A DNA stretch of 64,000 bases from Candidatus Uhrbacteria bacterium (GTDB taxonomy: Bacteria; Patescibacteriota; Patescibacteriia; UBA9934), in the NCBI GenBank assembly GCA_963822405.1, contig CAWGHH010000004.1, forward strand, positions 6,226-70,225, given 5' to 3'. Under the pieces are notes generated by a model. The model was not told the origin of the DNA. It ran no database searches and was given only the letters and a program-made list of their open reading frames with translations. Position 1 is the stretch's first letter, and each line of letters opens with the position of its first letter. This document shows, one piece after another, positions 3,911 to 59,252 of this stretch. The position numbers and the translations under genes were made by a program.

Positions 3911-4884
3911 GGGAGAAGATTTAAACCATTGAGCATCATCTGGAAGGTGGTCAGGAATTCAATGGTTTTTTCATCCCCAAGGTCATAAGTCAAAGTAAAT
4001 ACATTACTACCTCCGTCAACATAAGCAATCCGCTGATCCCGACGAGCCATTGCTAGCAAACCCTCAGTGGTATATGTGGTCTCTAGTTGTTGAGAATTTT
4101 CGTTCGGCACGTTTTGCTGATACCAAGTTTCTAAACTCTGCGTGGAATCTTTTGGTGTAACAGTAATAATAATAGCGGCAGTAGTTGGAGAACGGAAAGT
4201 TACCTTAGCAGTTGTCGAGTCTGCTACTGGCGTCCAAGCAGACGGGTAATAAATAGTAAACGGCAGATCGGTGCCCTGGAATACTCGAACCGCGCCGGTA
4301 TCGAGCAGTGTCAACGGAGCGGGACCGTTCGGATTGTACCGGTGGAATACCTCATTCCCGTCCAAGAACGTATCGCCATCTGTATCTGGATTTCGGTAAT
4401 CTGTCCCGTATAAAAGTTCCTCAATATCAGTCAAACCATCCGAGTCAGTATCCTTACCAGGCTGAGGCTCTAAAACCACCGGAATCGGTGTCGGAGTTGG
4501 TTCAGGAATTGGTTCAGGAACAGGTGTCGGAGCAACTACCGGGACCGGCATGAAGTAGAGATAATAAACCGTTCCCGCGCTGCCAAGTGCCAGGACAAAA
4601 AGAAGCAGAAATAAGAAAAGTAATACTCTAAACTTCTTTTTTGGCGGTGGAGTTATCGTGGCGGGCTTTGGAGGAATTGGTGCTGGGGCAACTACCGGCA
4701 GAGGGATTGGAGCGGGTACAGGTACCGGCACTGGAATTGGCACCACGGAGCCCGGCACGGGCACCGTGGACGACAAAGCCTTCCCCACAAACTCTTTTGG
4801 CATGACATGAATAACCATGTCGTCAGTTTTTATTGACGGCACCAAATTGCTTGTAGGTTGCTGTTCCTCTTTTTTTCCGAACAT
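3907..4884 (-). CDS. Bitopic membrane protein with Pro-rich N-terminus and C-proximal DxDxDG (thrombospondin type-3-like) Ca-binding repeats; paralog 1 of 3
   Basis: 325 aa. PVPVPVPAPIPLPVVAPAPIPP tract, one TM (FRVLLFLFLLLFVLALG), then DTDSDGLTDIEELLYGTDYRNPDTDGDTFLDGNEV and ...YNPNGP. Confidence 0.7.
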   Translation of the reverse strand: MFGKKEEQQPTSNLVPSIKTDDMVIHVMPKEFVGKALSSTVPVPGSVVPIPVPVPVPAPIPLPVVAPAPIPPKPATITPPPKKKFRVLLFLFLLLFVLALGSAGTVYYLYFMPVPVVAPTPVPEPIPEPTPTPIPVVLEPQPGKDTDSDGLTDIEELLYGTDYRNPDTDGDTFLDGNEVFHRYNPNGPAPLTLLDTGAVRVFQGTDLPFTIYYPSAWTPVADSTTAKVTFRSPTTAAIIITVTPKDSTQSLETWYQQNVPNENSQQLETTYTTEGLLAMARRDQRIAYVDGGSNVFTLTYDLGDEKTIEFLTTFQMMLNGLNLLP

Positions 4885-9400: not shown

Positions 9401-11074
9401 AACAACTCCACAGCCCGCAAAAGAATTCAATGGATCGGCCGGTAATTCTTTTGTACCAAGCGCACCACCAAGTATATCTGCCCAGCTTGGCCAAGTACTA
9501 GCGGCTACGTTTCTGACAAATGTACCAGCGGCTAATTCAGGAACGATTGGCGAACAGGATTCACCAAGCGGACATTCGGCACTTGTAGAACAAAGCTTTG
9601 AACGCGTTCCCGAGCAAACGCTATTTTCAGTGCTATAAGTTTTTACAGCCGAACGAATATCCGTCAGATCAGACAGGCGACGTACATCACGACGCACCTT
9701 TGCCTTAGTAGAAAGACAAACCGCACCAGGAGCGGCCGAAACACAATCAGCATCTGACGAACAGGTCTTATCCGTCAATGTTCCGTTAGCCAAACAGACT
9801 GTGTCATTTCCAAGATCTATGGCAAAGGAAATATTTCCAAGCATTAAATCAAATATTTTTTGAGCCGAGGCACTTGCTCCGTCGTTATACGATAAAACGT
9901 AAATATTGGAGTATAGCTTTCCGCCGCTATAATTAGAGGCTGAGACATAAACTGTTCGACCATCACGAACTGCCTCAAAACCGTCTACAGTTGTGTTTAC
10001 CGGACTACCCTTGAAGTTCTGCGCGTCATACCAAGCACGCGGCGAAAGGTAGCCAGGGTTGCTGACAATTCTTACGCCAATAGCATCACCAGAGTTATCA
10101 CCGATTTCAAACAAATACTGCTTAAGAATGTTCGTCGTTCCGCCTACTGGTGCCCGAACCGGCGTCACCGAAGGCAAGTCGTCAGTCAGGCCGACAGCTC
10201 CCTGATCTCGACAGAAATACGTAGAGAAATTCATCCAGCCATTTCCCTCTGAAGCCAATCCTTGAGCTCCACCAGTAGCATTGTCCTGCCATGGGAATTT
10301 AGACAATGTTGGCCAAGGATTTTCACAAAGAAGGGCCGTAACCTGAGCCGATCCCTTAGTCTTTTTATCTTTTGTTCCGCCAAGTGTATCCGCAGTGATA
10401 ATGGCCTCGGCCAGAATAGTTGTCTGACCGTTCTTACCAACAGTAGCGATACTCGCGGTGCTGTGATCAACACTGCTCTGTAGGGCAGTAAATAAAGCAG
10501 CATCACCGCTCACCCACTTGTCATAATCCCAAGCGTACACGTTTACAATCGGCACAATTTCTTGCGGGCCAGTAGCGGAATGAGAAACCGCCTTCGCTAC
10601 AAAGTTATGCATCTGATCTCCACGAGTAAAGAGATATGGACTGGTTTTATCAGTGTCTGAAATCTGAACCGCATCGAGAGCACAAAGTGATGGGCCAGTA
10701 GTGAAAGTAGAGGAAGTGACACCGCCCAAAGCAACGCCAGATGCCGCAGCTATTCCGGTTACTGACGAGTCGTTCACGTTCGTGTCACCCTCGACGACTA
10801 AGGTGTACTTAGCATTTGGCTCAAGTGCTTTTGCGTACTTCAAGTAAACTTTGTAAGTGCCATCATCCTGTGCAACCTGCGAGTATCCAGTCACCGGCAA
10901 CAAACACTTGGCGCCAACATTCGGCGCAGCTGAGGCAGACGCGCCCATGAAGAACCGAACGATCGAGTTTTTGACTAACGCGAAGAATCCCTTTGGATCA
11001 TGCGAAAGGGCAACCTGATAGCCACTTGGGCAAGTCATGTTCGGAGATACTGGTTCGAGCTGGCCCAGGACCAA
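6470..11074 (-). CDS. Giant (>=1534 aa) secreted Cys-rich repeat protein with C-terminal vWA-like domain; start uncertain (may be fused to the upstream giant ORF)
   Basis: Long ORF. Multiple C-x-CGDG/CGNG...E-CDDG...C repeats (e.g. [29 protein letters not shown]; [28 protein letters not shown]) of the Myxococcus-type cysteine-rich-repeat kind. C-terminal region resembles a vWA fold (AYVVFVTT...[10 protein letters not shown]). The 5' end overlaps the upstream ORF by about 77 to 100 nt in another frame and the tracked start is TTG. Confidence 0.7.
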
Positions 11075-14000
11075 CCGGAGCGCCGCCAGTCTCCAAGCTC
11101 AAATACATGTGATTTGTTTCAACTGTAGTAGCACCAACCACACTTGTTGTTGTAAAAGATTCTGTGTTCATCTTCTGCGTAAAGATAGCGTAGATAGCCG
11201 GGTTTCTACATGACGTAGAAGACGCAGTTGGGAACAAAGTAGCAGTTGGCCTTGGCATGCAGCAGTGCGCCGAACCAACTCCGTAAAGCGAAGGATTTGT
11301 ACAGCTAGCATCAGACGTGGCCACGCAAGAAAGAGAAAGATCGGCTGTAGTAGAAAGACCGGACGAATCTTCAGTCACTTGCACGGTAGCTAGAGCCTTC
11401 TTGGTTGTTCCATCCACCTCGAACACTGCACCATCAGAAATCACCGCAGTTTGCAGAGGATCGATTCTGCCGTCACCGGCTACGCCAACTTCACAAGCTG
11501 GATATTCGCCCACTCCAGCAAACCCGTCACCACAGAAAGATGCTTCCGTGTAAGCCGTGGAGGATCCCTCAAATAGACAGCGACTAGAACAGCCATCGCC
11601 GCTTACTTGGCTGCTATCATCACAGTCTTCAAAGACAGGACTGACGTCCCCATCGCCACAACCCTGCGCCTCCGTACCACCTTCATGCAAACAAGAAGAC
11701 GAACAGCCATCGCCGTTTACCACGTTCGAATCGTCACAGCTCTCAGCTGGAGCATCAACTCGACCATCGCCACAAACAGCCCCACCAATAGAAGCTAAAG
11801 TTGGCGTACCTTCGTTTGTACAGTTAGAAGAACAGCCGTCACCGTTTCTAGCGTTCCCGTCATCACATTCTTCACCGGCTTTAGTAGTAGCGTTTCGAGC
11901 AATGTCGTTGTTTCCGCAGGTTGCACCAACAGATCTAGAACCTTCGGCCTGACATTTACTAGAACAGCCGTCACCGTCAACCCCATTATGGTCATCACAA
12001 TCTTCCGCTAGATCGATCGTTCCGTTTCCACACATTGGAACAATAGTACCTTCACGTAAACACGAGGCCGAACAGCCATCGCCGCTTGCTACATTACCGT
12101 CTTCGCATTCTTCACCAGCAGTCGCGTCAAGCCGACCGTCGCCGCAAATAGCACGGTAGGCCACGCTGCCACCGGCAGTACATGAAGCTGTACAGGCGGA
12201 AGGAACTGAAGATGGGGACGTGTCCTGTAACTTTCCACCCAACCATTCAGCAACTACCGTTGAAGCATTACCATCAATGTTCTTGTCTACGATCGGGTTC
12301 GCCCAAGACCAAGAATATGAGAATCCGGTGAGTCTCTGACCAGACTGAGAACAGCTATCAGCCTCTCCGTATGCAGTGCTAGAGAATGTTGCCCTATCCC
12401 CAATCGATTTAGCTAATACACTAGCCGGGGAAATAGAAACTCTATTCACAGCACAAGCACTAGCATCTTCTCGAGCCCGGAAAATCCAAGAATAATCGCC
12501 ACCGTCATTTGTTCTGATTAATGGCACGCCACTCATACTCTTAACCGAGCCTGAGACAATTACCTTGTAAAAAGTGCTCGGATTCAAAGTGACTGTGGAC
12601 AAGGAGAAACCAGTACAATCGCCGGAAATACCAGTAACAGTGATACATTTAGCATTTGGGTTGGCAACTTCGCTAGTCGAAGAACAGAGTTCATTAGCAC
12701 AAGAGAACAAGCGAACAGCACCAGCCATTTCAACAGTCTGTGGCTTCATTGGAATGTTGAAACTCGCCCCGATCTGAGCGTTCATGCAAGCAGAATCACA
12801 ATCCGGCCACACACCCGTGACGTACGGATCTGTAAATTTAATGGTCAAATCACCAGCGCCCGAAGTGGTAGTGGTTCCAACAGTTGCTTTCACCGGAGTC
12901 TGGCCCTCAGCTAAAGCTTCAGCTGTAGCGCAAGAACTATTGCCACCAACACAAGATGGATTAGCCGTGCTATTAAAACCAGCAAAACTTGGGTTCATGC
13001 TCCACGCCCAGGTCACTGAGGCTGGATCAACCACTACACATCCAGAGGTTGGCAAGGCCGAGAAACTCTGCGTAGCATTCTTTGTCGTAAGCGAGGCTTT
13101 AGACGGAGAAACGCGAGCGCTATCAATTACACATGAACCGGCGTCAGTCTTAGTTAAGAATGTCCATTGAACATCATTCGGAAGAGCTATCCCGTCAGCC
13201 GACTGCGCATCAGTGGTGACAGTCACTCGATAGGTTGTGCCGGTGGCAAACACTGAGCCCGGCTTAAAAGTGAACGAGCTAGCGGTAGTTTGAACTGATC
13301 CGGTTACTGAAACCGCCGTAGAACACGGGTTAGATCCACCACCAGAACAACGCTCAACTTTCACCGCGCTGCCAAGCGTCGCTTGATTCATTGGGACAGT
13401 GAACTCCGCATAAACAACCGCGTTCACACAAACGGTATCTGTGAACTTAATGTTCGGCACAGAAGAAACAACAGCCTGTGAACATTCAGAAACAATTCGC
13501 GGAACCTTTGGCACAGATCCAGAAGAGAAACTCCAGGCGTAGCCACCACCCACCGCGCCAAGAGATACTGCCGGCGAGGAGACCGAGAATGGCACGTCAT
13601 TTCCCTTTACGCCGGCCGCGTTTACCAGACGAACGTTTCCTGATTGCGCCGCCGGAGGGACTACTGCTTTTACTTCAGTGTTACTCCATGAGCTGATGAC
13701 AGAAGTGACGCTCGACGAAAAAGTAACCGCTCCTTTTGTGCTTCCAAAATGGTCGCCCACCATTTTAACGACGTCTCCCGAAACACCAGTGCCAGGAATA
13801 ATGCCACACACATTTGGAGCATCATCCGTGGTCGATATAGTGAATGGAATAGTATTCGAATTCTGACCTCCAGCTGTAGTCATTGAAATAGTGTAAGCAC
13901 CAGGAAGCAAAGCAGTTCCCGCAGTACTGCTACCAGGAACAATAAATCTAACTGAAGTTGGGCTCCATGGGTTTACGGTACCGCAAGCCGCCGGGAAGTC

Positions 14001-16136
14001 TAAGCTAGCAATACCAATATCACCCGTGGCTGTATTCTTAAATTTAACCGTACCTTTAGCTGTGCCAAAATTGGCGCCTTCTAAACTGACGTATCGGCCA
14101 ATACCGCCCTGTCCAGGGTTTATAGATAGAAGCGAAGGAGCAGGAGTATTGGTTCCTGCGGTACCACCGGCTGAAGGAGGAATAGTCGATCCTGGCGTAG
14201 TGCCACCGGGAGGCGTGGTTCCGCTCGGGGGTGTAGTTCCGCCAGCTGAAGAACCTGCAGCGGCCGAAGTAAACCGCAAGCTAATCGAATTTGAAGAAAC
14301 CCCAGTTCCAGAAACTACTCGAACGCCGAATAATCCGTCACGCGTAGAAAGCACCGGCACAACAACCTGGGCTGAAGTGTCGCCCCACACTGGATATGAA
14401 GAACCGGTTTGAGCATTACCGAATGCAATAGTCGAGGCATTCACGCCCGACGGAGTTCTGTTCGCCCCGAATCCAGCGCCGATCAAAGTCAGCGAATCAC
14501 CAGCCTTAGCGCTCATGGCTGAAAGGCTACAAAGGTTAGGATGAATCACCGCGTCAACCACGAAGTTAGCAATCAGTGGACCTCTAACGTCACCCGTAGC
14601 ATCACGGCCAAGATCATCAGTTGCGTCAGCTCGAACAATTGAAATTGGACCGTTACCGGTGCCAGCAGGCACAACCACAATTACCTGGCGATCAGTCCAA
14701 CCTCCGTCACATGGCGCAAGTTGCGCCTCGATTGGAGCGCCGGAAGTAGCGAAAAATACTTTTCCTGGCGTAGCTCCAAAACCGTTACCAGAAATAGTTA
14801 CGTAAGTTCCAGGCGCGCCAGAAAGAGGAGAAACAGCTCTGATCACCGTCATGGCCTTACAAGTACCATTAACACAAGAGCCGGATTGGCAGTCAGTTGA
14901 AGCAGTACAGACAGAACCATCACACGCACCACAGTAATTAATGTTGGTCGGATCTCCGCCACAATCAATTCCAGTTTCGCCACTGCCAGAATCTAGAATG
15001 TTATTTTGACAACTTGCTGGCGACAACATAACAGAAACCGAATCCTCGGCCGTGTTCCCGGCCAGGTCAGTAATCGTCGACGAAAGATTAATAGTGTTGC
15101 CCGCATCAATATTGCTCGTATCCCATGAAGTACTGATAGTCACATTTTTCGGATCAGTTCCGCTGGCTGGCACTTCGTCAAAGCTCACGCTGCCAGCTAA
15201 GAATGTAGCGCTTGCCACCCCAACGTCGTCCGTTCCGATCACCTGCACATTCTGTGAACTATTCGCAGCGATTCGTTGTCCAGAAGTAGGGTCAGTTAAT
15301 CTGGCAGTTGGTGCTGTTTCGTCAATGATCGTCCCAGTTGTAAACGTGCCGGTACATGGACGGCTAGTAGGACAGGTCAACGCAGCCGCAGAAGTATTCT
15401 TAATGGCAGTAGTTAAAGTAACAGTGAACTGTGTGCTAGCGTCGAAACATCTAGTCACGGAACCAGTGGAACAAGGCGTAGTTGGCTTAAACGTGATCAC
15501 GTTCCCAGAAACGGAAGGCGTGCCATCAATAACCGCGCCGGTAAGTGTATTTTTTACTGTGAATGCCCCAGCGATGCTTGCTGGATCAACATTCTTTGAG
15601 AATGTAACCCGAACTTGAGGATTACGAATAGTGATTTCTCCGGCAGGTTTTACGCCAGTCACTACGAATGCACTACCAGAGCCTCCGCCAAGCGCCGAAC
15701 CTCCGCCGGCACCACCCCCACCACCAGTGCCACCGCTCCCGCCGGCTCCAGTCGCGCCCAAGATAGAGGACATAACAAAAGACACAATAGACCAGGACAT
15801 CAAGATAATCATGAGGCCAATTCCACCACCAATCAAAATCTTTTTAGCTTTCGCGACATTCTCTTCGTTTCCAGCGGCCGTCATCCAAACAAAACCACCG
15901 TAAAGAACAATCACCACCGCCACAACACCAAGCAAAGAAATTCCAGTTCTAATCAAGCGCGCCACGATGAGTCTAGGATCTTCGCTGCCCAAGCCAGCTG
16001 ACTGCCCCACCACATCAAGCCCGCCCTGGACATCCGCCGACTGGGCTAAAGCGATCATCGGCAAAGCGAACGGCAAGGCCGTACTCGCCATGACGAGTGC
16101 TCCGAGGACTAGATGTTTTAAGGGCTTGATGTTCAC
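10998..16136 (-). CDS. Giant (1712 aa) cell-surface protein: signal peptide + 2-TM hairpin anchor, Gly-rich linker, Ig-like and IPT/TIG-like domains, Thr/Pro linker, six Cys-rich CGDG...CDDGN...GDGCS repeats
   Basis: N-terminus MNIKPLKHLVLGALVMASTALPFALPMIALA-QS (AxA-type cleavage site). TM1 ISLLGVVAVVIVLYGGFVWMTAAGNEENVAKAKKILI, TM2 GGGIGLMIILMSWSIVSFVM, then a GGSGGTGGGGGAGGG linker. IPT/TIG-like segments (SGAPGTYVTISGNGFG; GQGGIGRYVSLEGANFG; GVSGDVVKMVGDHFG). C-terminal repeats such as ICGDGRLDATAGEECEDGNVASGDGCSASC, six copies. Confidence 0.85.
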   Translation of the reverse strand: MNIKPLKHLVLGALVMASTALPFALPMIALAQSADVQGGLDVVGQSAGLGSEDPRLIVARLIRTGISLLGVVAVVIVLYGGFVWMTAAGNEENVAKAKKILIGGGIGLMIILMSWSIVSFVMSSILGATGAGGSGGTGGGGGAGGGSALGGGSGSAFVVTGVKPAGEITIRNPQVRVTFSKNVDPASIAGAFTVKNTLTGAVIDGTPSVSGNVITFKPTTPCSTGSVTRCFDASTQFTVTLTTAIKNTSAAALTCPTSRPCTGTFTTGTIIDETAPTARLTDPTSGQRIAANSSQNVQVIGTDDVGVASATFLAGSVSFDEVPASGTDPKNVTISTSWDTSNIDAGNTINLSSTITDLAGNTAEDSVSVMLSPASCQNNILDSGSGETGIDCGGDPTNINYCGACDGSVCTASTDCQSGSCVNGTCKAMTVIRAVSPLSGAPGTYVTISGNGFGATPGKVFFATSGAPIEAQLAPCDGGWTDRQVIVVVPAGTGNGPISIVRADATDDLGRDATGDVRGPLIANFVVDAVIHPNLCSLSAMSAKAGDSLTLIGAGFGANRTPSGVNASTIAFGNAQTGSSYPVWGDTSAQVVVPVLSTRDGLFGVRVVSGTGVSSNSISLRFTSAAAGSSAGGTTPPSGTTPPGGTTPGSTIPPSAGGTAGTNTPAPSLLSINPGQGGIGRYVSLEGANFGTAKGTVKFKNTATGDIGIASLDFPAACGTVNPWSPTSVRFIVPGSSTAGTALLPGAYTISMTTAGGQNSNTIPFTISTTDDAPNVCGIIPGTGVSGDVVKMVGDHFGSTKGAVTFSSSVTSVISSWSNTEVKAVVPPAAQSGNVRLVNAAGVKGNDVPFSVSSPAVSLGAVGGGYAWSFSSGSVPKVPRIVSECSQAVVSSVPNIKFTDTVCVNAVVYAEFTVPMNQATLGSAVKVERCSGGGSNPCSTAVSVTGSVQTTASSFTFKPGSVFATGTTYRVTVTTDAQSADGIALPNDVQWTFLTKTDAGSCVIDSARVSPSKASLTTKNATQSFSALPTSGCVVVDPASVTWAWSMNPSFAGFNSTANPSCVGGNSSCATAEALAEGQTPVKATVGTTTTSGAGDLTIKFTDPYVTGVWPDCDSACMNAQIGASFNIPMKPQTVEMAGAVRLFSCANELCSSTSEVANPNAKCITVTGISGDCTGFSLSTVTLNPSTFYKVIVSGSVKSMSGVPLIRTNDGGDYSWIFRAREDASACAVNRVSISPASVLAKSIGDRATFSSTAYGEADSCSQSGQRLTGFSYSWSWANPIVDKNIDGNASTVVAEWLGGKLQDTSPSSVPSACTASCTAGGSVAYRAICGDGRLDATAGEECEDGNVASGDGCSASCLREGTIVPMCGNGTIDLAEDCDDHNGVDGDGCSSKCQAEGSRSVGATCGNNDIARNATTKAGEECDDGNARNGDGCSSNCTNEGTPTLASIGGAVCGDGRVDAPAESCDDSNVVNGDGCSSSCLHEGGTEAQGCGDGDVSPVFEDCDDSSQVSGDGCSSRCLFEGSSTAYTEASFCGDGFAGVGEYPACEVGVAGDGRIDPLQTAVISDGAVFEVDGTTKKALATVQVTEDSSGLSTTADLSLSCVATSDASCTNPSLYGVGSAHCCMPRPTATLFPTASSTSCRNPAIYAIFTQKMNTESFTTTSVVGATTVETNHMYLSLETGGAPVGPGPARTSISEHDLPKWLSGCPFA

Positions 16137-16145
16137 AATAGAAGA

Positions 16146-17936
16146 TTAAAAGAGGACGCAGGCAGAAGCCGACGAAACTCCGTTGCAACAGTAAGGGGAA
16201 GAGGCAGTAACACCACAAACACCACCCGTCGCATCCGGTCCAGCGCCTGGTACATAACAATTCTGATACTCGTTCAAAAGTCCACTCGTGACCGTCGAGC
16301 CATATTCGTAAGTCTTGCCGTCAACTGACTGCAGGAACGTACCGTGGCTTATTTTCACAAGCGTCTGAGCGGGAATCTGAGAACCAGAAGTCACTAACTC
16401 GCCATTACTCGTTAAGTATGAAGTGCTTGGCGAATACCACATTTCATGCGAAGTGTTGGTTGATAATTCCTTATTAGACAAACTAATCGTGTCTTGTGAA
16501 ATGGTCGAGGTCATTAAAACGCCATCAAAAGTCACCAGCACTGGCTGATCAAGTGGCACATTCTCCTCAGAAATATTCGGCGAGATAGAAGTTATACTTG
16601 GCCCCTTAAGCGCAATGTCACCAGTGGTCGAAAAGCCCCAGGCGAAGCTGTCTCCGGCCGTTCCGTCATGATTACCGTCTAACGAGTTACCAGCCATGTC
16701 GACAACCCCGTCATATGGGAAGATATCAGCCTGCGGAGGATTCGTGGTGGTAGTCGCGCCTCTAACAGTTGCTGTCAGAGTACTGCTTCCCGGAAGACAG
16801 ACGATTGTTTCACCGCAAGAATTAGTTCCGCATGGACTGTCAGAATGGAACGTAACTGATGTATAGCCGTTGGAAATTTCATACGTTCCAGTCACCGGAG
16901 TAGCACCAGCAGTAATGGCGATATTTGAAAATCCCCCAGCCTGAGCGTGTTGACCGGAAGCTGACGTAGGATCAACTGGTTCAGAAAAAGTAGCTTGCAC
17001 TACAATGTTTCGAGCAAACGTACCAGCATTTGCCGGCGTCACGCTCACGATAGTAGGAGGCGTGAGATCAAGAACGGTACCAGTTTCAAATGACCATTTG
17101 TAACCACCGCTATATGAACCAGCAAAGATTTTGTTTCCGCTGGCATTTTTAATATCAGCAGTCAGTTGCACCGTGTACTGCACTTTACTGGTTGGCGAAC
17201 CTAAATAGACGGCCGGCTTAAAGACAAAAGTCCTGTGATCATCAGTCGAGCTGATCGTCACATCTGTCAAAGCTCCTGGCGCACCAGACGCCGTAGGAAA
17301 AATCTTAACCGAGCCTACCGTGACCGTAGCTGGATCAATCGCTTCCTTAAAAGTAAGCATCACTTTAGCGTTCCTCGCTACGTCTGTTTGATTACGTGTT
17401 GGGTAGTGATCACGAATCGGCCCGGAACCAAGCGCGCCAGATAGACTCTCTACGGAAACTCCCCCATTACCGCCGCCACCAGTACCGCCATTACCACCGC
17501 CAGTACCACCGGTGATAGCGTTTATCACGAATGTTGTAATCCCGTATGCGCTCAGCGTAATAACAATTCCGACCGTAGCTTGAATTAAAATATTCTTAGC
17601 CTTAACAACCTTTTTGTCATCCCCACCGGCCGTCATCCAGATAACTCCAGCGTAGATTGTCAAAATAAGAAAAACAACTCCCAACAATCCTAGGAATATG
17701 CTGATTATTCGACCGATGATTGTAGGAAGATCAGCTCCCCCAAGTCCGGCCGTGGCCGCTACCTGCGCTGCTTGATCTGTCTGCGCTAAAACGTGTGGCG
17801 CAGAAAATAAAAAGCCGCCCACAAAAACACCAAGGCCAAGTAAAAGAGAAATCCGCGCCGTTCGGCTCAACATAGTCCCCACTATTTTACCGCAAAAAAA
17901 GAGTCCCCACGTTATTTGCATGGGGACACTTTCCAA
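16146..17936 (-). CDS. Cell-surface protein (596 aa by first ATG; likely start at 17873) with the same signal-peptide/2-TM N-terminal module followed by bacterial Ig-like (Big/SbsA-type) domains
   Basis: MLSRTARISLLLGLGVFVGGFLFSAPHVLA-QT, then IIGRIISIFLGLLGVVFLILTIYAGVIWMTAGGDDKKVVKAKNILIQATVGIVITLSAYGI, then GGTGGGNGGTGGGG. Big-like PTIVSVTPANAGT...VQATFSEPVDP. The N-terminal module is collinear with that of the 1712-aa protein. Confidence 0.85.
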   Translation of the reverse strand: MESVPMQITWGLFFCGKIVGTMLSRTARISLLLGLGVFVGGFLFSAPHVLAQTDQAAQVAATAGLGGADLPTIIGRIISIFLGLLGVVFLILTIYAGVIWMTAGGDDKKVVKAKNILIQATVGIVITLSAYGITTFVINAITGGTGGGNGGTGGGGNGGVSVESLSGALGSGPIRDHYPTRNQTDVARNAKVMLTFKEAIDPATVTVGSVKIFPTASGAPGALTDVTISSTDDHRTFVFKPAVYLGSPTSKVQYTVQLTADIKNASGNKIFAGSYSGGYKWSFETGTVLDLTPPTIVSVTPANAGTFARNIVVQATFSEPVDPTSASGQHAQAGGFSNIAITAGATPVTGTYEISNGYTSVTFHSDSPCGTNSCGETIVCLPGSSTLTATVRGATTTTNPPQADIFPYDGVVDMAGNSLDGNHDGTAGDSFAWGFSTTGDIALKGPSITSISPNISEENVPLDQPVLVTFDGVLMTSTISQDTISLSNKELSTNTSHEMWYSPSTSYLTSNGELVTSGSQIPAQTLVKISHGTFLQSVDGKTYEYGSTVTSGLLNEYQNCYVPGAGPDATGGVCGVTASSPYCCNGVSSASACVLF

Positions 17937-18016
17937 CCCAGAGAGAAATATGTATCAGAAAATTTTTAGGAGGTAACCCGACTCAAATTTTATGATGCAT
18001 ATTTCTCTCTGGGTTG
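17936..18016. repeat. Conserved-loop hairpin element, copy 1 (about 30-bp perfect stem; loop TTAGGAGGTAACCCGACTC on the plus strand)
   Basis: Left arm aacccagagagaaatatgtatcagaaaattt, loop ttaggaggtaacccgactc, right arm aaattttatgatgcatatttctctctgggtt. The arms are reverse complements, allowing G-U pairs. Confidence 0.85.
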
Positions 18017-18028
18017 TAAGCCTTTTCA

Positions 18029-24993: not shown

Positions 24994-25563
24994 GTGGAAG
25001 GTATGACCTTCATCATTCTTGGCCTTGGTAATCCTGGTGAGGAATACGAGAGAACTCGGCATAACGCCGGGTTTCTTGTTGTTAATGAATTAGCAAAAAA
25101 ACTAAACGTCTCTTTTAAGGACGTAGATTCTTTTCAAGCCGAAGTTGCTGACGGACGGATTGGAGATCACAAAGTCATCATTGCAAAACCATGGACGTTC
25201 ATGAATGCTTCTGGTCGAGCCGTCAGTGCCCTGGCTAATTTCTACAAAGTGCCCCCAAATCACATCATCATCGTCGCTGACGATGTCTCTCTTCCACTTG
25301 GAACGCTCAGAGTACGCACCGAAGGATCAGCTGGCGGACATAACGGATTGAAATCGATCATCGAACATCTAAAAACAGAATCATTCCCCCGCGTAAAAAT
25401 CGGCGTAGATCCTCAACCAGCCAACGTCCCTCTGGAGGCCTGGGTGCTCTCAAGGCTCTCCAAAGATGAACTCAAACTCTTGTCACCCGTCATTGATCAG
25501 GCGGTTAACGAGCTCATAGACGCAGTCCAGGAAGGAGTCTCGCCCACTACCGCCAAACTATGA
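24994..25563 (+). CDS. pth: Peptidyl-tRNA hydrolase
   Basis: 189 aa. FIILGLGNPGEEYERTRHNAGF signature. Confidence 0.95.
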   Translation: MEGMTFIILGLGNPGEEYERTRHNAGFLVVNELAKKLNVSFKDVDSFQAEVADGRIGDHKVIIAKPWTFMNASGRAVSALANFYKVPPNHIIIVADDVSLPLGTLRVRTEGSAGGHNGLKSIIEHLKTESFPRVKIGVDPQPANVPLEAWVLSRLSKDELKLLSPVIDQAVNELIDAVQEGVSPTTAKL

Positions 25564-26658
25564 CAGACCCGTTTCTTGTTGCCCTCGCAAACTGTCCTGT
25601 TTTTGGATCTAGATCGCTCGAAAAACTGATGACACGATTTTCTACCGCTGAAGCCGCCTGGGTATCGAGCCCAGACGAACTCATGACGCTCGGACTTGGG
25701 GAACAAAGAGCAAACGCATTCATCGCGTATCGCAAAACAACGAATCCACTATCCCTCACTGAATTGCTCAGAACAACCGGCGTACGAATGATCACCAAAG
25801 ATGATTCTGAATATCCGCCACTCCTCAAAACAATCTTTGATCCGCCATTTGTATTATTTCTAAAAGGAGCGCCACTTAAAGAATTGTGCGTTTCTATTGT
25901 TGGTTCTCGTCGGAATACTGAATACGGCAAAAAAGTCGCCACTCGATTCGCCAAAGAACTAGCCCAAAGAAACATAAGCATCATTTCCGGCCTAGCAGAA
26001 GGAATAGATACCGCCGCATATAAAGGAGCAATCGAAGGAAAAGGACATACTGTAGCCGTGCTTGGCGGAGGATTATTAAAACGCAATAGCCGTGATAAAG
26101 AATTAGCAGCCCAAGAAGTACTCGCCAATAACGGCACCGTTATTTCAGAGTTCCCTCTACGAGGATCGTTTATAAGTTTTCATTTTCCGATGCGCAATAG
26201 AATAATTGCAGGCATGAGTAAAATTACACTAATTGTCGAAGCGGCCCTGCCATCCGGCACGTTAACCACAGCCAAGGCAGCGGCTGAAGCAGGTCGGGAT
26301 GTATTCGCTGTACCCGGTCCAATAGATTCATTTACCTCTACAGGAACAAACAATCTTATAAAAGAAGGCGCTTTTGTTGCAACTAGCCCAGAAGACATAT
26401 TTCTTGCTCTCGAAATGAGTTCGCCGTCCCCAAGGCCAGCGACTATTCAAAATCAAATTTCTTTACCAAAAATTCTTCCCACTCTAGAACCCATTTCTGC
26501 AAAACTCTACGAGCATCTCCAAACAGGCACCTCTCTTTGCGGATGAACTTACTCTAAAGACCGGACTGTCTTCACCAGAAGTTTCACGGGCACTACTCGA
26601 ACTAGAACTCATGAGTCTCGTGAAGCACTTGGGAGGAACTAGGTACGAGTGTACCTGA
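25560..26658 (+). CDS. dprA: DNA processing protein DprA (Smf); the C-terminal winged-helix domain is encoded in the +1 frame after an apparent frameshift near 26535-26545
   Basis: Rossmann core VSIVGSRRNTEYG...LAEGIDTAAYKGA in the ORF ending 26546. The next frame continues ...DELTLKTGLSSPEVSRALLELELMSLVKHLGGTRYECT* (a DprA_WH-like C-terminus), ending with TGA at 26656-26658. Confidence 0.8.
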
Positions 26659-26660
26659 GC

Positions 26661-26737
26661 GGAATGAAGAGATATGTCCCATAAAATTTGAGTCGGATTA
26701 CCTCCTAAAAATTTTATGGGACATATCTCTTCATTCC
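26661..26737. repeat. Conserved-loop hairpin element, copy 2a (loop GAGTCGGATTACCTCCTAA on plus, the complement of the other copies)
   Basis: Arms ggaatgaagagatatgtcccataaaattt and aaattttatgggacatatctcttcattcc are perfect reverse complements around a 19-nt loop. Confidence 0.9.
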
Positions 26738-26739
26738 TA

Positions 26740-26818
26740 GGGCGAATCGTAAATGTCCTCCAGAAATTTTTAGGAGGTAATCCGACTCAAATTTCCGGAG
26801 GATATTTACGATTCGCCC
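26740..26818. repeat. Conserved-loop hairpin element, copy 2b (loop TTAGGAGGTAATCCGACTC), adjacent to 2a in the inverse core orientation
   Basis: Arms gggcgaatcgtaaatgtcctccagaaattt and aaatttccggaggatatttacgattcgccc, with two G-U-type mismatches. Confidence 0.9.
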
Positions 26819-26900
26819 GACCAAATTTTAGGGAAATACTTTCATTGTTGAAGAGACTCCTTGACGATGATGTATCATTCGAGCTATCAATTTCGCAAAT

Positions 26901-29177
26901 ATGCCCCCACTTCTAATTGTAGAGTCCCCCACCAAAGCCAAAACAATTAACAAATTTCTTGGCTCAAGTTACACAGTTATTTCGTCATACGGCCACATTA
27001 GAGATCTTCCAAAAAACAAAATGGGCGTAGATACCAAACACAACTTTGCCCCGACATACATCATCCCAGATGACAAAAAGGATAAAGTGAAGGCCCTTCA
27101 AACGGCTGCAAAAAAAGCTTCAGAAGTCTATCTCGCAACCGACGAAGACCGCGAAGGAGAAGCCATTGCCTGGCACATTGCTGAAGTGCTGGACCTAGAT
27201 GAAAAAACCGCCAAACGCATTACCTTCCACGAGATCACTAAGAGCGCTATAGAGAACGCCCTTAAGAACGCTCGAACGCTAGACATGCACCTGGTAGACG
27301 CCCAACAGGCACGTCGTATTCTTGATCGCCTGGTAGGTTTTGAGTTGTCACCGCTACTCTGGAAAAAAGTCCGAAGAGGACTTTCGGCTGGACGTGTACA
27401 ATCAGTGGCTGTTCGTATTGTAGTAGAGCGTGAACGTGAACGCCTCGCCTTCAACCAAGAAGAGTACTGGTCTATTGAAGGTGTATTTGAAAAATCTGGA
27501 ACTGAATTCCCAGCTAAACTTCAGGCCATCGGCGATAAAAAAATAGACAAGCTAGACATCAAAAATACTAAAGAAGCGCAAGCAATAGTTGAGGCTGTTA
27601 AAGACGCAAAATTTTCAGTCATCTCTGTTGAAGAAAAAGAAGCGAGCAAGAAACCGCCAACCCCACTCACTACTTCCACCCTTCAACAAGAAGCGCATAA
27701 CCGCCTAGGAATGAGCGCGAAGCAAACCATGACGCTAGCACAAAAGCTATACGAAACCGGTTTCATCACTTACATGCGTACTGACTCATTAAACATGAGC
27801 ACGCAATTTCTAGATGCCGCCCAAACATACATCAAAACTACTTTTGGAACTGAATACGCCAAGGGTTCAGTGGCTTACCACACCTCAAAAAAAGGAGCAC
27901 AGGAAGCGCACGAAGCAATTCGCCCGACCAACCCAGACGCATCTCCGGATGATGCTCGCGCCTCGCTTGATCCTGGCATGGCCAAACTATATGACCTCAT
28001 CTGGCGTCGTACCATGGCCTCTCAGATGCCCTCAGCCAAGATGCAGCGAACCGCTATTGATCTCTTGGGTAATGACCACACTTTCCGAGCCACTGGCTCA
28101 ACAGTTGTCTTTGATGGCTACATGAAAGTCTGGCAAGCCTCTGAAGACAAGCTCTTACCCGCCATGACTAAGGGCGATGACCTTGGACCAGCCAAGGAGA
28201 TTAAACCAGAACAGCATTTCACAGAACCTCCTGCTCGCTATTCTGACGCTACGCTAGTCAAAGCACTTGAAGAACATGGCGTCGGTCGTCCATCTACTTA
28301 CGCTCCAACACTGTCGACCATCGAAGCGCGTGAATACGTCCTACGAGATGATAATAAGAAACTATATCCATCAGACATTGCCATGATCGTCACGGATCTT
28401 TTGGTCGAGCATTTTCCACAGATTGTTGACCTAGAATTTACTGCAAAAATGGAAAAGCAGTTCGACGCCATTGCTGACGGCGAAGAATCATGGACCCAAG
28501 CTATAGATGATTTCTACGAGCCGTTCCATAAACTGATTGAAGAGAAAACTGAAGATTTATCACGTTCCGATATCATGAAGGAACGCTCACTCGGCGTAGA
28601 CCCGGTAACTGGTCTTGAAGTCATCGCCAGAAACGGCCGGTTCGGTCCGTTTGTGCAGCTTGGACCAATCACAGACGAGATTAAGCCTAAGCGCGCGTCC
28701 CTTGAAAAGCATCAAGCGCTAGAAACTATCACGCTCACGGACGCCATGAAGCTATTCATTCTGCCTCGTGAGCTAGGCGCCCATCCAAATGGTTACGCGA
28801 TCATTGCCAACACCGGACGCTTCGGTCCGTACCTTAAGTGCGGCGATATGAATATCTCGCTCCCGGAAGGCACAGACCCAAAGACGATCACCCTTGAACA
28901 AGCCATTGAGTTCTGCACAAGCGGTGTTGAAAAGAAGATCAAGATGAACACGCCTATTGCGGAGCTCGGCGAAGATCCGGAAACAAAAGCTAAGATTCTC
29001 GTGAAGGACGGTCGATTCGGCCCGTATGTCACAGACGGCAAAACAAACGCCACCATTAAAAAAGACATCGATCCTAAATCGATTACTCGAGAAATGGCGA
29101 TCGAAATGCTCGAAAAGAAACGCAAGGCACCGAAACGAAAATTCACGCGCAAACCAAAAGAAACAACCGAGGCTTAA
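26901..29177 (+). CDS. topA: DNA topoisomerase I
   Basis: 758 aa. TOPRIM (LLIVESPTKAKTI...GHIRDL), catalytic Tyr region, and three C-terminal GRFGPF/Y repeats. Confidence 0.96.
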   Translation: MPPLLIVESPTKAKTINKFLGSSYTVISSYGHIRDLPKNKMGVDTKHNFAPTYIIPDDKKDKVKALQTAAKKASEVYLATDEDREGEAIAWHIAEVLDLDEKTAKRITFHEITKSAIENALKNARTLDMHLVDAQQARRILDRLVGFELSPLLWKKVRRGLSAGRVQSVAVRIVVERERERLAFNQEEYWSIEGVFEKSGTEFPAKLQAIGDKKIDKLDIKNTKEAQAIVEAVKDAKFSVISVEEKEASKKPPTPLTTSTLQQEAHNRLGMSAKQTMTLAQKLYETGFITYMRTDSLNMSTQFLDAAQTYIKTTFGTEYAKGSVAYHTSKKGAQEAHEAIRPTNPDASPDDARASLDPGMAKLYDLIWRRTMASQMPSAKMQRTAIDLLGNDHTFRATGSTVVFDGYMKVWQASEDKLLPAMTKGDDLGPAKEIKPEQHFTEPPARYSDATLVKALEEHGVGRPSTYAPTLSTIEAREYVLRDDNKKLYPSDIAMIVTDLLVEHFPQIVDLEFTAKMEKQFDAIADGEESWTQAIDDFYEPFHKLIEEKTEDLSRSDIMKERSLGVDPVTGLEVIARNGRFGPFVQLGPITDEIKPKRASLEKHQALETITLTDAMKLFILPRELGAHPNGYAIIANTGRFGPYLKCGDMNISLPEGTDPKTITLEQAIEFCTSGVEKKIKMNTPIAELGEDPETKAKILVKDGRFGPYVTDGKTNATIKKDIDPKSITREMAIEMLEKKRKAPKRKFTRKPKETTEA

Positions 29178-40525: not shown

Positions 40526-40583
40526 AATTCAGCTCCTACTTTGACGCCCGGGCAAACCCGGGCGTTTGTATATTCAGCCTTTT

Positions 40584-40668
40584 CCAAACCAAAAGCGACA
40601 CACTGTCATAAAATTTTTAGGAGGTACTCCGACTCAAATTTTAGGATAGTGTGTCGCTTTTGGTTTGG
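40584..40668. repeat. Conserved-loop hairpin element, copy 3 (loop TTAGGAGGTACTCCGACTC)
   Basis: Arms ccaaaccaaaagcgacacactgtcataaaattt and aaattttaggatagtgtgtcgcttttggtttgg, 33 bp with G-U pairs. Confidence 0.9.
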
Positions 40669-40675
40669 ATCCGCA

Positions 40676-42082
40676 CTAGGCAAGCTTAATATTCGCCTCT
40701 TTCAGTGCCTTCTCAGGCAGTGGAGAAGGCGCACCCATCATGTGGTCTCGAGCGTTTCCGTCCTTCGGGAATGCCATTACTTCACGAATGTTCGCCTCGC
40801 CCTGGAATAATGCCATAACGCGGTCTACGCCGAGCGCAATACCTCCATGTGGTGGTGCGCCAAGTTCAAACGCTTTCATCATGTGACCAAACTGTGCATC
40901 GATCGTTTCAGCCGGGAAACCCATGATCTCGAATACTTTTCTGAGCGCGTCTGGCTGATGATTACGGATAGATCCACCACCGATTTCAAAACCGTTTAGC
41001 ACAATGTCGTACTGACTAGTGATGATATTGCCAACATCTTCTTTGCTCATGAGCTTGTCGTGCCATTCTGGCAATGCAGCCGAGAATGGATTATGGGTAA
41101 AGGTTCATCCACCGTCTTCTGTCTTTTCAAAGAACGGGAAGTCAATTACCCAACAGAACGCGAATAAGTTAGGATCATTCTTGTCTTCACGAATATCTGG
41201 ACGGTCATTTCCATACTTCTCCATGGATTCTTTATAGGTCATGCGTGGAAACGGCAATGCCTGGATCTTAGCGTCTGGTCTATATGTTTTAACGAGCTGA
41301 ATCAAAAGTTCTTCGATCATGCTCATCACATCTTCACGTTCCACAAAGCTCATCTCAAGGTCGAGCTGAGTAAATTCTGGCTGACGATCTCCACGTTGAT
41401 CCTCATCACGGAAACACTTGGCTAGCTGATAATAGCGTTCAACACCGGCCACCATAAGCAACTGTTTAAATTGCTGCGGTGACTGCGGAAGAACATAAAA
41501 ATTACCTGGGTGCGGACGAGAAGGCACAATGAATTCACGCGCACCTTCAGGAGTTCCTTTGGTGAGGATCGGAGTTTCAACCTCAATAAATCCTTTCTCA
41601 TTGAAATACTTACGCATGTCTTGAAATACAGCGTGACGAGTTCGCAGGTTCTTCTGCATGCGCTCCGAACGAAGATCGAGATAGCGGTAAGCCAAACGAG
41701 TCTCCTCATTCACCGGCAAGGTATCTTTATCGATTTCAAATGGCGGAGTCTTGGACTCGTTCAACACCTTCACAGATTTTGCTAGCAGTTCAACCGTTCC
41801 GGTCTTGATCTTATCGTTAATCTGCTTCGGGCCTCGAGCCTGGACTACTCCCTCAATCTCAACTACCCACTCAGGACGAACTTTGTTCGCTGCCTCAGCA
41901 GTATCACCGACCTCCGAAGGAACAATAACTACTTGCAATAAACCGTTCTTATCACGCAGATCAAAAAACGCTACCTTGCCCATGTCACGACGAGCGTGAA
42001 CCCAACCAGCCACCTTCACCGTCTCACCAACCTTACCCACTGTCTCTGACGAATAAATTCGTTGCATATAATTATCTAGCAT
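40676..42082 (-). CDS. aspS: Aspartate--tRNA ligase, compact type lacking the GAD insertion; interrupted by an in-frame TGA at 41105..41107
   Basis: N-terminal OB-fold plus motifs 1 and 2 (FRDEDQRGDRQPEFTQLDLEMSF) in ORF 41105..42082, and motif 3 (GGIALGVDRVMAL) in ORF 40676..41074. Both are in the same frame, separated only by TGA: ...FFEKTEDGG*TFTHNPFSAALPEW... aligns without a gap to the E. coli GEGGLTAMHHPFTSP region. Confidence 0.88.
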
Positions 42083-42261
42083 TTAATCTTGTAATTATTT
42101 GAGGGCGTGAGGGATATTGCTAATGCAGCGAGGAATTGCATTTATTAGGAGGTCGACATCCTTCGAATTTTCAGAAAATAGTTCGACCGACTCTAAATGC
42201 CCGCGCCAAGTCAGCAACATCCCTCGTGCCCGAAAGCTCATAAAGAAAGAATTCAGTGGGC

Positions 42262-42516: not shown

Positions 42517-42900
42517 TTGTCACACCTCGAACCGCGCCCAGCGGAAGGCAAACCCTCAACCGGCGAACACGACGCCGTCACCGTGAAAAAGAGGAAATTT
42601 ACGAAGGCAGATAAAGCCCAGTTTCAACGGATCACCGCCATTGCAGAACAGGCGGTTCATGCCATCCGATATCCCGCCGAAGCCACGGAGCAAGATCACT
42701 ACTCGCTCAAACTCCTGACAGACGCAGATGTCGTCACCATCAAGATGAGCGCCAAAGAGATGTGCAAATCCATTGGCGCTCTCAGGCGAACAATTGATGA
42801 CTTGATCGCAGGCAACGGAGCCGAAGTCGAGTGGATCAAACCGCTCAACTATCTCCTGCTTGTTCACAAGTCTCGTCCGTCACGCGGCATCGACAAATGA
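42517..42900 (+). CDS. Hypothetical protein (127 aa)
   Basis: ORF only, no recognisable motif. Confidence 0.4.
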   Translation: MSHLEPRPAEGKPSTGEHDAVTVKKRKFTKADKAQFQRITAIAEQAVHAIRYPAEATEQDHYSLKLLTDADVVTIKMSAKEMCKSIGALRRTIDDLIAGNGAEVEWIKPLNYLLLVHKSRPSRGIDK

Positions 42901-44784: not shown

Positions 44785-45569
44785 CTAGTATATCTTCACG
44801 GTTGGTTCAGGCGTCAACAATTCTGGACCACTCGGCAGAATAGCAATAGTTACTTCAAAATGGGCTGAAATAGATTTATCGGCCGTTATTATGGTCCAAC
44901 CGTCTTTGGCGGTCACAACATCATGAGTACCAAGCGTGACCATCGGTTCAATGGCTAAGCACATCCCCTCTTTAAGATTTGTTTTAGGAAATGCGTTACT
45001 AACATAATTCGGCACATGAGGAGATTCGTGAATGGCGTGACCTACGCCATGACCAACTAACGCCTCCACGATTCCGTATTTCTTTTTATTAATGGCCCCT
45101 CCACTGCCACGCTAATGTCATGTACAGTTCCGCCAATTTTTGCCGCCGCCACCCCCGCACGCATTGACTCACGAGTAGTGTTTAAAAGCTGTTTCAATTC
45201 ATCGGAAATTTCCCCCACAGGAACCGTGACCGCCATATCAGTGCACATGTCTTTATACCAACAACCAATATCAAGCCCAACTACATCCCCCTCATTCAGT
45301 ACTATATCTCGAGTGCCAACGCCATGAACAACCTCTTCGTTAACCGAGATACAAACAGTTGAGGGAAAGGGGGTTTTATTACCGCCCTTGTAGCCCAAAA
45401 AAGATGGCTTTCCGCCTCCCTTCTCAATAACCCCGCGCGCGATAGTATCAAGCTCATGCATGGTTACTCCCGGTCTAATCGCATCCACTGCCGCCTGAAG
45501 CGCTCTGGACAATAAAACCCCACCCTCACGCATGGCTTGGATCTCTTCTTTTGTTTTAATCAAAGCCAT
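44785..45569 (-). CDS. map: Methionine aminopeptidase type I, with a -1/+1 frameshift in a poly-A tract near 45068-45080
   Basis: ORF 45057..45569 carries the MetAP N-terminus plus D/D metal ligands. ORF 44785..45069 carries ...VGHGVGHAIHESPHV...E...E ligands. The junction lies in ccattaataaaaagaaatac, where a 1-nt shift restores a continuous protein. Confidence 0.85.
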
Positions 45570-58994: not shown

Positions 58995-59252
58995 AAAAAC
59001 AGACTATGGCTCCTCGCTCCATAAAAGTAGAGCTGAGGTTCCATAGCCCGAAGTATCGATCCCCTCTGAGGGGCGCGTACATTCAGGTTTTTTGTTCAAG
59101 TGTGAATAGGCAATTCCTCGCACAGACTCCGCATGAAGCGTCGGGAAGGTTTTCCATTTCTGGATCTTTCTTTCCGGTTCACTATAGGAGGTTGTTGTTC
59201 GAGATTGCGATCAAGGCACGATAGCTCTTGCCTTCGTCGCAATCTCGAACGG
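58995..59252 (-). other. 324-nt structured spacer between rpsJ and rplC (long-range helix plus a 15-bp perfect hairpin), unassigned
   Basis: gttgaacaaaaac / gttttttgttcaa pairing encloses about 75 nt. Perfect palindrome gttcgagattgcgac...gtcgcaatctcgaac at 59198..59252. No ORF. Confidence 0.35.

Follow-up and report, generated by a model that had tools for sequence, protein, structure and literature searches.

It has been reported that REP sequences are palindromes of 20-50 nt preceded by a conserved GTAG, with conserved irregularities in the stem, and that they are recognized strand-specifically as folded single-stranded DNA (PMC8266576). REP/BIME elements together with RAYT (TnpA-REP) are the nearest functional analogy for two hairpins, 2a and 2b, that lie back to back between dprA and topA in the DNA analyzed here (the window, a stretch of 64,000 nucleotides), and they too are extragenic palindromes close to gene ends. 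The likeness extends to doublets in inverse orientation (2a and 2b are 2 nt apart, and the same arrangement is present in L011, a locus of a related MAG, and in L007), to the predicted structuring of one strand, with a recurrent G.A mismatch 8-9 bp from the core, and to vertical inheritance with genome-specific variants. However, the elements found here are 77-90 nt long (125 nt in an extended copy, w5), that is, 2-3 times longer than REPs; GTAG was missing from their flanks, and the 5' and 3' flanks of 14 copies shared no motif. Besides, REPs are conserved in the stem, whereas here the stem sequence is free and the apical tip is conserved. In the 207 kb examined we saw no RAYT gene, and the copy number looked far below the hundreds typical of REPs. 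Because of the missing GTAG, the greater length, the conservation of tip instead of stem and the lack of a RAYT gene in the DNA examined, the family is set apart from REP/BIME and is not a member of it.

Other palindromic elements share some of these properties. Correia/NEMIS elements of Neisseria and ERIC sequences of enterobacteria are MITE-like hairpin repeats that act in mRNA processing and stability. Like the copies described here, they are palindromic intergenic repeats of ~100 bp that occur in either orientation and are co-transcribed as long hairpins. In contrast to their identical terminal inverted repeats and target-site duplications, outer stems differed between copies here and inspection, the only method used for this feature, showed no flanking direct repeat; strictly defined, the family is therefore no MITE. 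Conservation of stem structure over sequence, and a single active strand marked by non-canonical features, are also found in attC sites, IS200/IS605 ends and plasmid single-strand origins. An attC site has conserved R''/R' boxes at the stem base and a variable terminal loop; the present elements show the reverse, a variable base and a conserved tip, and are not attC sites. Unlike all three systems they are chromosomal and dispersed, with no integrase, transposase or Rep gene nearby. TIGR systems occur in phages and parasitic bacteria and contain two variable loop spacers of 8-12 nt between box C/D motifs, in arrays beside a tas gene (PMC12045711). In both cases a variable, palindromic stem encloses a loop that contains short conserved motifs, but a TIGR stem-loop array was rejected here, as the copies are dispersed with an invariant tip and the Pfam tables contained no Nop domain.

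Hairpins 2a and 2b are neighboring copies of a small, previously undescribed family of palindromic repeats, which is intergenic, has elements of 77-125 bp and is restricted to a clade of uncultured Patescibacteria near Uhrbacteria, the window having been placed there through its TopA homologs. The genomes of Patescibacteria (CPR) are tiny and their intergenic spacers very short, and a brief literature search found no repeat element described for them. The family nevertheless keeps ~80 bp of intergenic DNA while silent sites nearly saturate, and in this lineage it would be useful for marking mobile or regulatory DNA. Its compensatory changes and strand choice point to a trans-acting partner, such as a nuclease, a recombinase or an RNA-binding protein, and its GGAGG-rich loops, in a genome without Shine-Dalgarno (SD) use, need not concern the ribosome.

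Geometry, copies and inheritance of the repeat

The arrangement given in the initial annotation, back-to-back hairpins with opposite cores, proved correct: the same 19-nt core is present in both and is inverted between them. The arms of 2a (26661-26689 and 26709-26737) are 29 nt long and 100% complementary; those of 2b (26740-26769 and 26789-26818) are 30 nt long and 93% complementary, with A.C at position 8 and G.T at position 15 counted from the core, and 19 nt separate the arms in either case. On the + strand the 2a core reads GAGTCGGATTACCTCCTAA, and the 2b core is its exact reverse complement. Once the flanking AAATTT is included, the two hairpins have a perfect inverted repeat of 31 nt in common, and the conserved unit is AAATTT, 19 nt and AAATTT rather than the 19 nt alone. 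Hereafter, the strand reading TTAGGAGGTAAYCCGACTC is termed B-sense and the other strand A-sense. Folding of 26640-26900 as RNA gave -122 kcal/mol (z = -12.8), and four hairpins (2a, 2b, w1 and w3) are the longest inverted repeats of the window. Stems of different copies were not fully unrelated and had a faint ..CATAT.TCTC.. pattern in common. The distance to topA had been put at roughly 85 nt; the exact value is 82 nt from the end of 2b to the ATG. Downstream of the pair, the inner right arm of 2b is partially repeated in direct orientation, probably as a remnant. Coordinates of these features are listed in Table 1.

Table 1. Repeat copies and adjoining gene signals in the window
Feature	Position	Strand	Details
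Copy w1	17931-18019	+	Core 17966-17984; 9 nt after hflX stop (18029, - strand)
dprA true stop (TGA)	26656-26658	+	2 nt before 2a
Hairpin 2a	26661-26737	B-sense (TTAGGAGGTAATCCGACTC) on -	29 perfect pairs; core 26690-26708
Hairpin 2b	26740-26818	B-sense on +	30 pairs; core 26770-26788
Partial direct repeat of 2b inner right arm	26822-26841	+	CAAATTTTAGGGAAATACTT vs CAAATTTCCGGAGGATATTT; absent from MAG
topA promoter and start	26861-26903	+	-35 TTGACG 26861-26866; 18-nt spacer; -10 TATCAA 26885-26890; 10 nt; ATG 26901
Copy w3	40583-40669	+	Core 40617-40635; 6 nt after aspS stop (40676, - strand)
Extended copy w5	42107-42231	+	Same tip module; conserved in L012 and L013

Relatives were obtained through TopA and ScpA homologs, and 207 kb from five genomes were examined. 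The family has 15 copies in these five related genomes, 14 of standard type plus the extended w5, at a density of ~1 per 13 kb. A covariance model built on ten copies detected 14 copies in the 207 kb and none in the more distant L009 and L010; it scored 2a at 93 bits on the - strand versus 52 on the + strand. With up to one mismatch, the core occurred 4 times in the window, compared with 0 in 100 shuffles. When the exact core pattern was scanned against larger collections, only one MAG (CAYGEQ01) was returned from the genome collection, two coding matches ascribed to chance from the metagenome collection and no match from the viral collection. In Rfam 15, no family matched at the gathering threshold, the window giving tRNAs only; for the hairpins there were sub-threshold matches resembling miRNA precursors, which reflect a generic long hairpin.

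Apart from the dprA-topA spacer, family copies follow hflX, aspS and adk, and another precedes a small, unrelated gene. Copy w1 precedes an intrinsic terminator (17927-17903, - strand); the orthologous spacers of L006 and L011 lack it. Copy w3, whose ortholog is L012 5930-6036, sits 16 nt after the terminator (40543-40566, + strand) of a convergent small ORF. In w5, located between aspS and a divergent conserved gene (42517-42900; product of 118-127 aa), a 6-bp helix (GGUCGA/UCGACC) and a conserved 27-nt apical loop take the place of the tetraloop. The w5 region of ~130 nt corresponds to 42100-42240 (+) in the window, 4363-4505 (-) in L012 and 4100-4242 (-) in L013, and 13 of its 41 predicted pairs have undergone compensatory change. 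A T-box or riboswitch upstream of aspS was considered for w5 and had no Rfam match. The product of 42517-42900 was also considered as a RAYT-like enzyme and was rejected, with no HUH motif by inspection and no recorded Pfam hit. Similarly, a role of the stems as guides was discarded, as no arm matched more than 11 nt elsewhere in the window. The rule that the anti-SD-like strand follows the upstream gene held at dprA, hflX, aspS and adk and failed at L001, L003 and L006; the orientation relative to genes is thus not fixed.

The inverse doublet between dprA and topA was also found in the MAG (L011; TopA 88% identical) and in L007 (81%). In L006 (TopA 87% identical) only a hairpin of the 2b type was present, and genomes at 74-77% TopA identity have a hairpin-free spacer of 36-49 nt. 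At four-fold degenerate positions, topA was 32-46% identical among the four genomes with hairpins versus 27% expected by chance, so that neutral sites of topA are close to saturation; the core differed at 0-2 of 19 positions among orthologs without a tip insert. Turnover was seen at other loci: w1 occurs in the window only, an adk copy is present in L013 and L014 but not in the window, and the stems of L003 and L006B are decaying. Tip variants were genome-specific. For example, the tips of 2a and 2b are both TAAT in the window and both TAAC in the MAG, and in the L007 genome three derived tip positions (G3/C6'/A7') are common to all three copies. This suggests concerted evolution, or else co-evolution of the tips with a trans-acting factor.

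The MAG that contains L011 and L002 (GCA_964348985.1, CAYGEQ01) is labeled 'uncultured Gammaproteobacteria bacterium'. This label is probably wrong, since the MAG agrees with the Patescibacteria window in TopA, in gene order and in its hairpin elements. The MAG also contains runs of exactly 100 N, located in L014 (5316-5415, 9865-9964, 14767-14866, 18699-18798 and 19939-20038) and in L001 (2979-3078); one 100-N run covers the expected place of the MAG aspS and of the w3 ortholog.

Tip fold, stem pairing and strand preference

In minimum-free-energy predictions, the B-sense tip consists of a UU/C internal loop, an A-U and a G-C pair, tandem G.A/A.G, two G-C pairs and a variable tetraloop. In this fold A3-U6' and G4-C5' would be paired, G5A6 would lie opposite G3'A4', and G7G8 would pair with C1'C2', so that the 19-nt 'loop' is predicted to be mostly base-paired on the B-sense strand. 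Variation between copies falls in the tetraloop (UAAU, UAAC and UACU), and the three inserts seen (in w5, L007A and L012) all sit at the tetraloop and lengthen the helix. A3-U6' is replaced by G-C in all three copies of the L007 genome. The initial annotation had proposed that an anti-SD mimic and a super-SD are displayed in the loops. The predicted fold argues against such display: AGGAGG would be paired with CCGACU through the tandem G.A, and one pair covaries. A K-turn, loop E and SRP domain IV were also considered for the tip and rejected, as the geometry is unsuited and no Rfam SRP match was found.

The element as a whole has a stem of 28-34 bp in which the sequence is free and pairing is kept, a fixed A/T helix of 7-8 bp and the fixed tip. 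Stem changes on both sides that preserved pairing were counted at 12 of 29 positions between 2a and its MAG ortholog, 7 of 29 between 2b and its MAG ortholog, 16 of 29 and 20 of 29 in comparisons with L007, and 8 of 32 between w3 and L012. No pair was broken in these five comparisons, and one was broken in each of three comparisons with decaying partners (L006B, L013/L014). Covariation was then assessed in a gap-free alignment of ten copies, using 500 shuffles and, as a control, slid registers. We found that 94.5% of cells were paired versus 64.6% in shuffles and at most 49% in slid registers. Double changes occurred at 27 of 33 pairs, and none of the 500 shuffles reached the observed values.

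The two strands of the stem were not equivalent. Non-Watson-Crick stem pairs on the B-sense strand comprised 14 G.T and 10 G.A, versus 2 A.C, 2 pyrimidine-pyrimidine and 1 other; on the A-sense strand the same positions would be C.A and C.U or U.C mismatches. In most copies a mismatch recurs 8-9 bp from the core. The B-sense fold was more stable in 14 of 14 copies (sum of -629 versus -550 kcal/mol); w5 did not have the same strand bias (3 A.C versus 4 G.U). Replication strand was rejected as the cause, as copies occupy both strands of one replichore. Because of this distribution, and because the bias runs opposite to the deamination expected of an exposed strand, we read it as selection on the single-stranded form of the B-sense strand. 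With regard to transcription, the B-sense strand of 2a (in three genomes), of w1 and of both adk copies is antisense to every neighboring gene, and the element in the adk-map spacer must be co-transcribed in A-sense. Copies that are antisense in B-sense were as well kept as those whose B-sense strand runs along local transcription. This equal conservation in either orientation, together with the rarity of G.T pairs, modestly favors a folded-DNA substrate or cruciform over RNA.

The explanation we tentatively put first, at somewhat less than an even chance, is a REP-like, strand-specific hairpin element with a local transcript-end or insulator effect. Such an element would work like a REP/BIME unit, more likely as folded DNA than as RNA; its tip would be recognized by a putative trans-acting protein, and its copies would be gained and lost between close relatives. 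At this locus, the doublet would have entered the DNA between the stop of dprA and the -35 of topA, whose promoter is of the leaderless type, and would then have been passed on vertically, and two hairpins of roughly -47 kcal/mol would cap or insulate the der-pth-dprA transcript end, with topA translation not being regulated. Besides the differences in length and conserved part noted above, several observations fit this account less well. The copy density is modest, w5 lacks the strand bias, and termination is not predicted, there being no U-tract after either hairpin. Template switching in quasi-palindromes could also keep the arms complementary without selection. No candidate for the recognizing protein was found: the Pfam tables, which covered about 140 kb, and the 10 ORFs scanned in the window contained no transposase, HUH, recombinase or Nop gene.

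A broader version, which we regard as possible but unlikely, takes the tandem-G.A tip on its covarying stem as the recognition site of a strand-specific protein acting on DNA or RNA, and the family as a new, vertically inherited hairpin element of Patescibacteria. Here the concerted evolution of the tip would imply conversion or mobility directed at the tip, unlike REP/RAYT, which is directed at the stem.

A structured host RNA acting in cis or trans is likewise unlikely. The B-sense rod would then be the functional form, its tandem-GA tip would bind an RNA-binding protein, whether as sponge, processing signal or RNase III site, and the copies would be RNA genes or UTR modules. The very strong covariation, the greater stability of B-sense in every standard copy and the nature of G.U and G.A as tolerated non-canonical pairs of RNA helices are consistent with this, as is the fact that 2b, w3, L001, L003 and w5 are B-sense co-directional with a neighboring gene. 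However, the copies that are antisense to all their neighbors in B-sense (2a, w1 and the two adk copies) belong to the best preserved ones; in three genomes, 2a is paired at 29 of 29 positions. The A-sense transcription required of the adk-hairpin-map unit also argues against an RNA, no shared promoter was found 5' of the B-sense hairpins, and G.U made up ~3.6% of pairs, which in our judgement is fewer than expected for a long-evolved RNA helix.

Somewhat less probable again is a neutral or decaying miniature mobile element without host function, in which template switching would keep the arms and gene conversion the tip. The gain and loss of copies between close relatives, the decay of some of them and the genome-specific tip variants would all be expected of such an element, and the almost exclusively Watson-Crick pairing is what a DNA-level process predicts. 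On the other hand, a tip of 19-33 bp is short for recombinational homogenization of dispersed copies, and template switching does not predict the 14:2 excess of G.T over A.C, a bias that runs counter to those usually left by deamination during replication and transcription. The persistence of the pair while silent sites became nearly saturated also speaks against neutrality.

The dprA transcript end and the topA promoter

At the upstream side of the pair, dprA (25560-26658 in the window) is frameshifted near 26521-26546. The MAG ortholog is intact (364 aa), and its stop is 2 nt before its own hairpin. Two further genes of the window are interrupted: aspS (40676-42082) has an in-frame TGA at 41105-41107 where the ortholog has Trp (TGG), and map (about 44791-45533) has a frameshift near 45090. 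The interruptions of dprA, aspS and map represent either assembly errors or gene decay.

Each hairpin was calculated at about -46 to -50 kcal/mol with RNA parameters. At the end of the der-pth-dprA transcript, such hairpins would be strong 3' barriers and likely processing sites, and a local insulating effect on the dprA operon transcript is plausible. The fallback offered in the initial annotation, a bidirectional terminator or insulator, is plausible as the local effect, but the hairpins are not canonical intrinsic terminators, as they lack a U-tract. A scan of 26300-27100 for intrinsic terminators found none, and the flanks (TAGGGCG and GACCAAATT) contain no T-run. We therefore consider a plain bidirectional terminator between dprA and topA improbable, even though the pair begins directly after the dprA stop, is very stable and, being inverse, shows the same structure in both directions. 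The absence of a T-run after either hairpin on either strand is one argument against it, and the canonical terminators beside w1 and w3 do not resemble these stems of 29-30 bp with their 19-nt tip. Those two copies adjoin normal terminators, so that the element is not needed for termination there, and no gene converges on the dprA-topA spacer.

Downstream of the pair, the topA promoter block is conserved across all four hairpin-bearing genomes (the window, L011, L006 and L007), and the hairpins are upstream of its -35. The hairpin-less relatives keep the geometry, with TTGCCA-17-TATCGT-10 nt-ATG in L009 (950-992) and TTGCCA-17-TATTGT-9 nt-ATG in L010 (8232-8271). In every relative the -10 of this sigma-70-type promoter ends 9-10 nt before the ATG. 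A consensus promoter scanner did not call the topA promoter because its -10 ends in A. Given the short distance from the -10 to the ATG and the position of the hairpins, the normal topA mRNA is, judging from sequence, of the leaderless type and does not contain the hairpins. The promoter spacer also contains a palindrome, ATGAT-GT-ATCAT (26867-26878 in the window), which is conserved in the four hairpin-bearing genomes and may be an operator.

Near-perfect symmetry and an AT centre favor cruciform extrusion, and topA promoters of model bacteria respond to supercoiling. The palindromes could accordingly act as a supercoiling sensor, a reading we find very doubtful: under strong negative supercoiling they would extrude as cruciforms just before the topA -35 and alter promoter activity. 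This is the only locus with a conserved pair, the pair abuts the -35 at 10-12 nt in the MAG and L007, and its near-perfect Watson-Crick symmetry and AAATTT centre would favor extrusion. However, in the window and L006 the -35 is 43-45 nt away, other copies lie beside unrelated genes, and relatives manage without any hairpins. The strand bias and the conserved asymmetric tip would also be left unexplained.

The observation in the initial annotation that topA lacks an SD of its own was confirmed, and it appears to be the norm here. In 43 of 54 long window ORFs, no SD-like word was present before any of the first eight candidate starts; the 11 ORFs with such a word are fewer than expected from the chance rate, which was measured at internal start codons. 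The organism thus appears to initiate translation independently of SD sequences. The switch that had been proposed, in which loop 2a as anti-SD mimic and loop 2b as super-SD would tune topA translation on a dprA-topA read-through transcript, is very unlikely: although the cores contain UAGGAGGU and ACCUCCUA and topA has no SD, the leaderless-type promoter is downstream of the hairpins, SD usage is lacking genome-wide, AGGAGG is predicted to be paired, the SD-like motif is ~115 nt from the ATG, and the element is dispersed at unrelated loci.

Three further candidates were tried for the element and rejected. A small ORF translated from the SD-like motif would have its nearest ATG 18 nt away, and two copies only have this ATG. 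For a SECIS- or PYLIS-like recoding hairpin, the stops were TGA, TAG and TAG, and each protein stops at the same point as its orthologs. For a promoter inside the core, the best candidate (TTGAGT-18-TTTTAT) lacked the key A and was not conserved, and the scanner found none.

Two other features of the window were recorded. Region 10998-17936 encodes two very large secreted proteins of 1712 and 596 aa, with orthologs containing T4SS_pilin and Big_5 domains, which we take to be of the cell-surface protein kind known from Patescibacteria; w1 is just upstream of the second of these genes. An unrelated long hairpin is present at 59185-59250, with 25-nt arms that are 88% complementary, a 4-nt loop and TAGGAGGT just upstream at 59185-59192.
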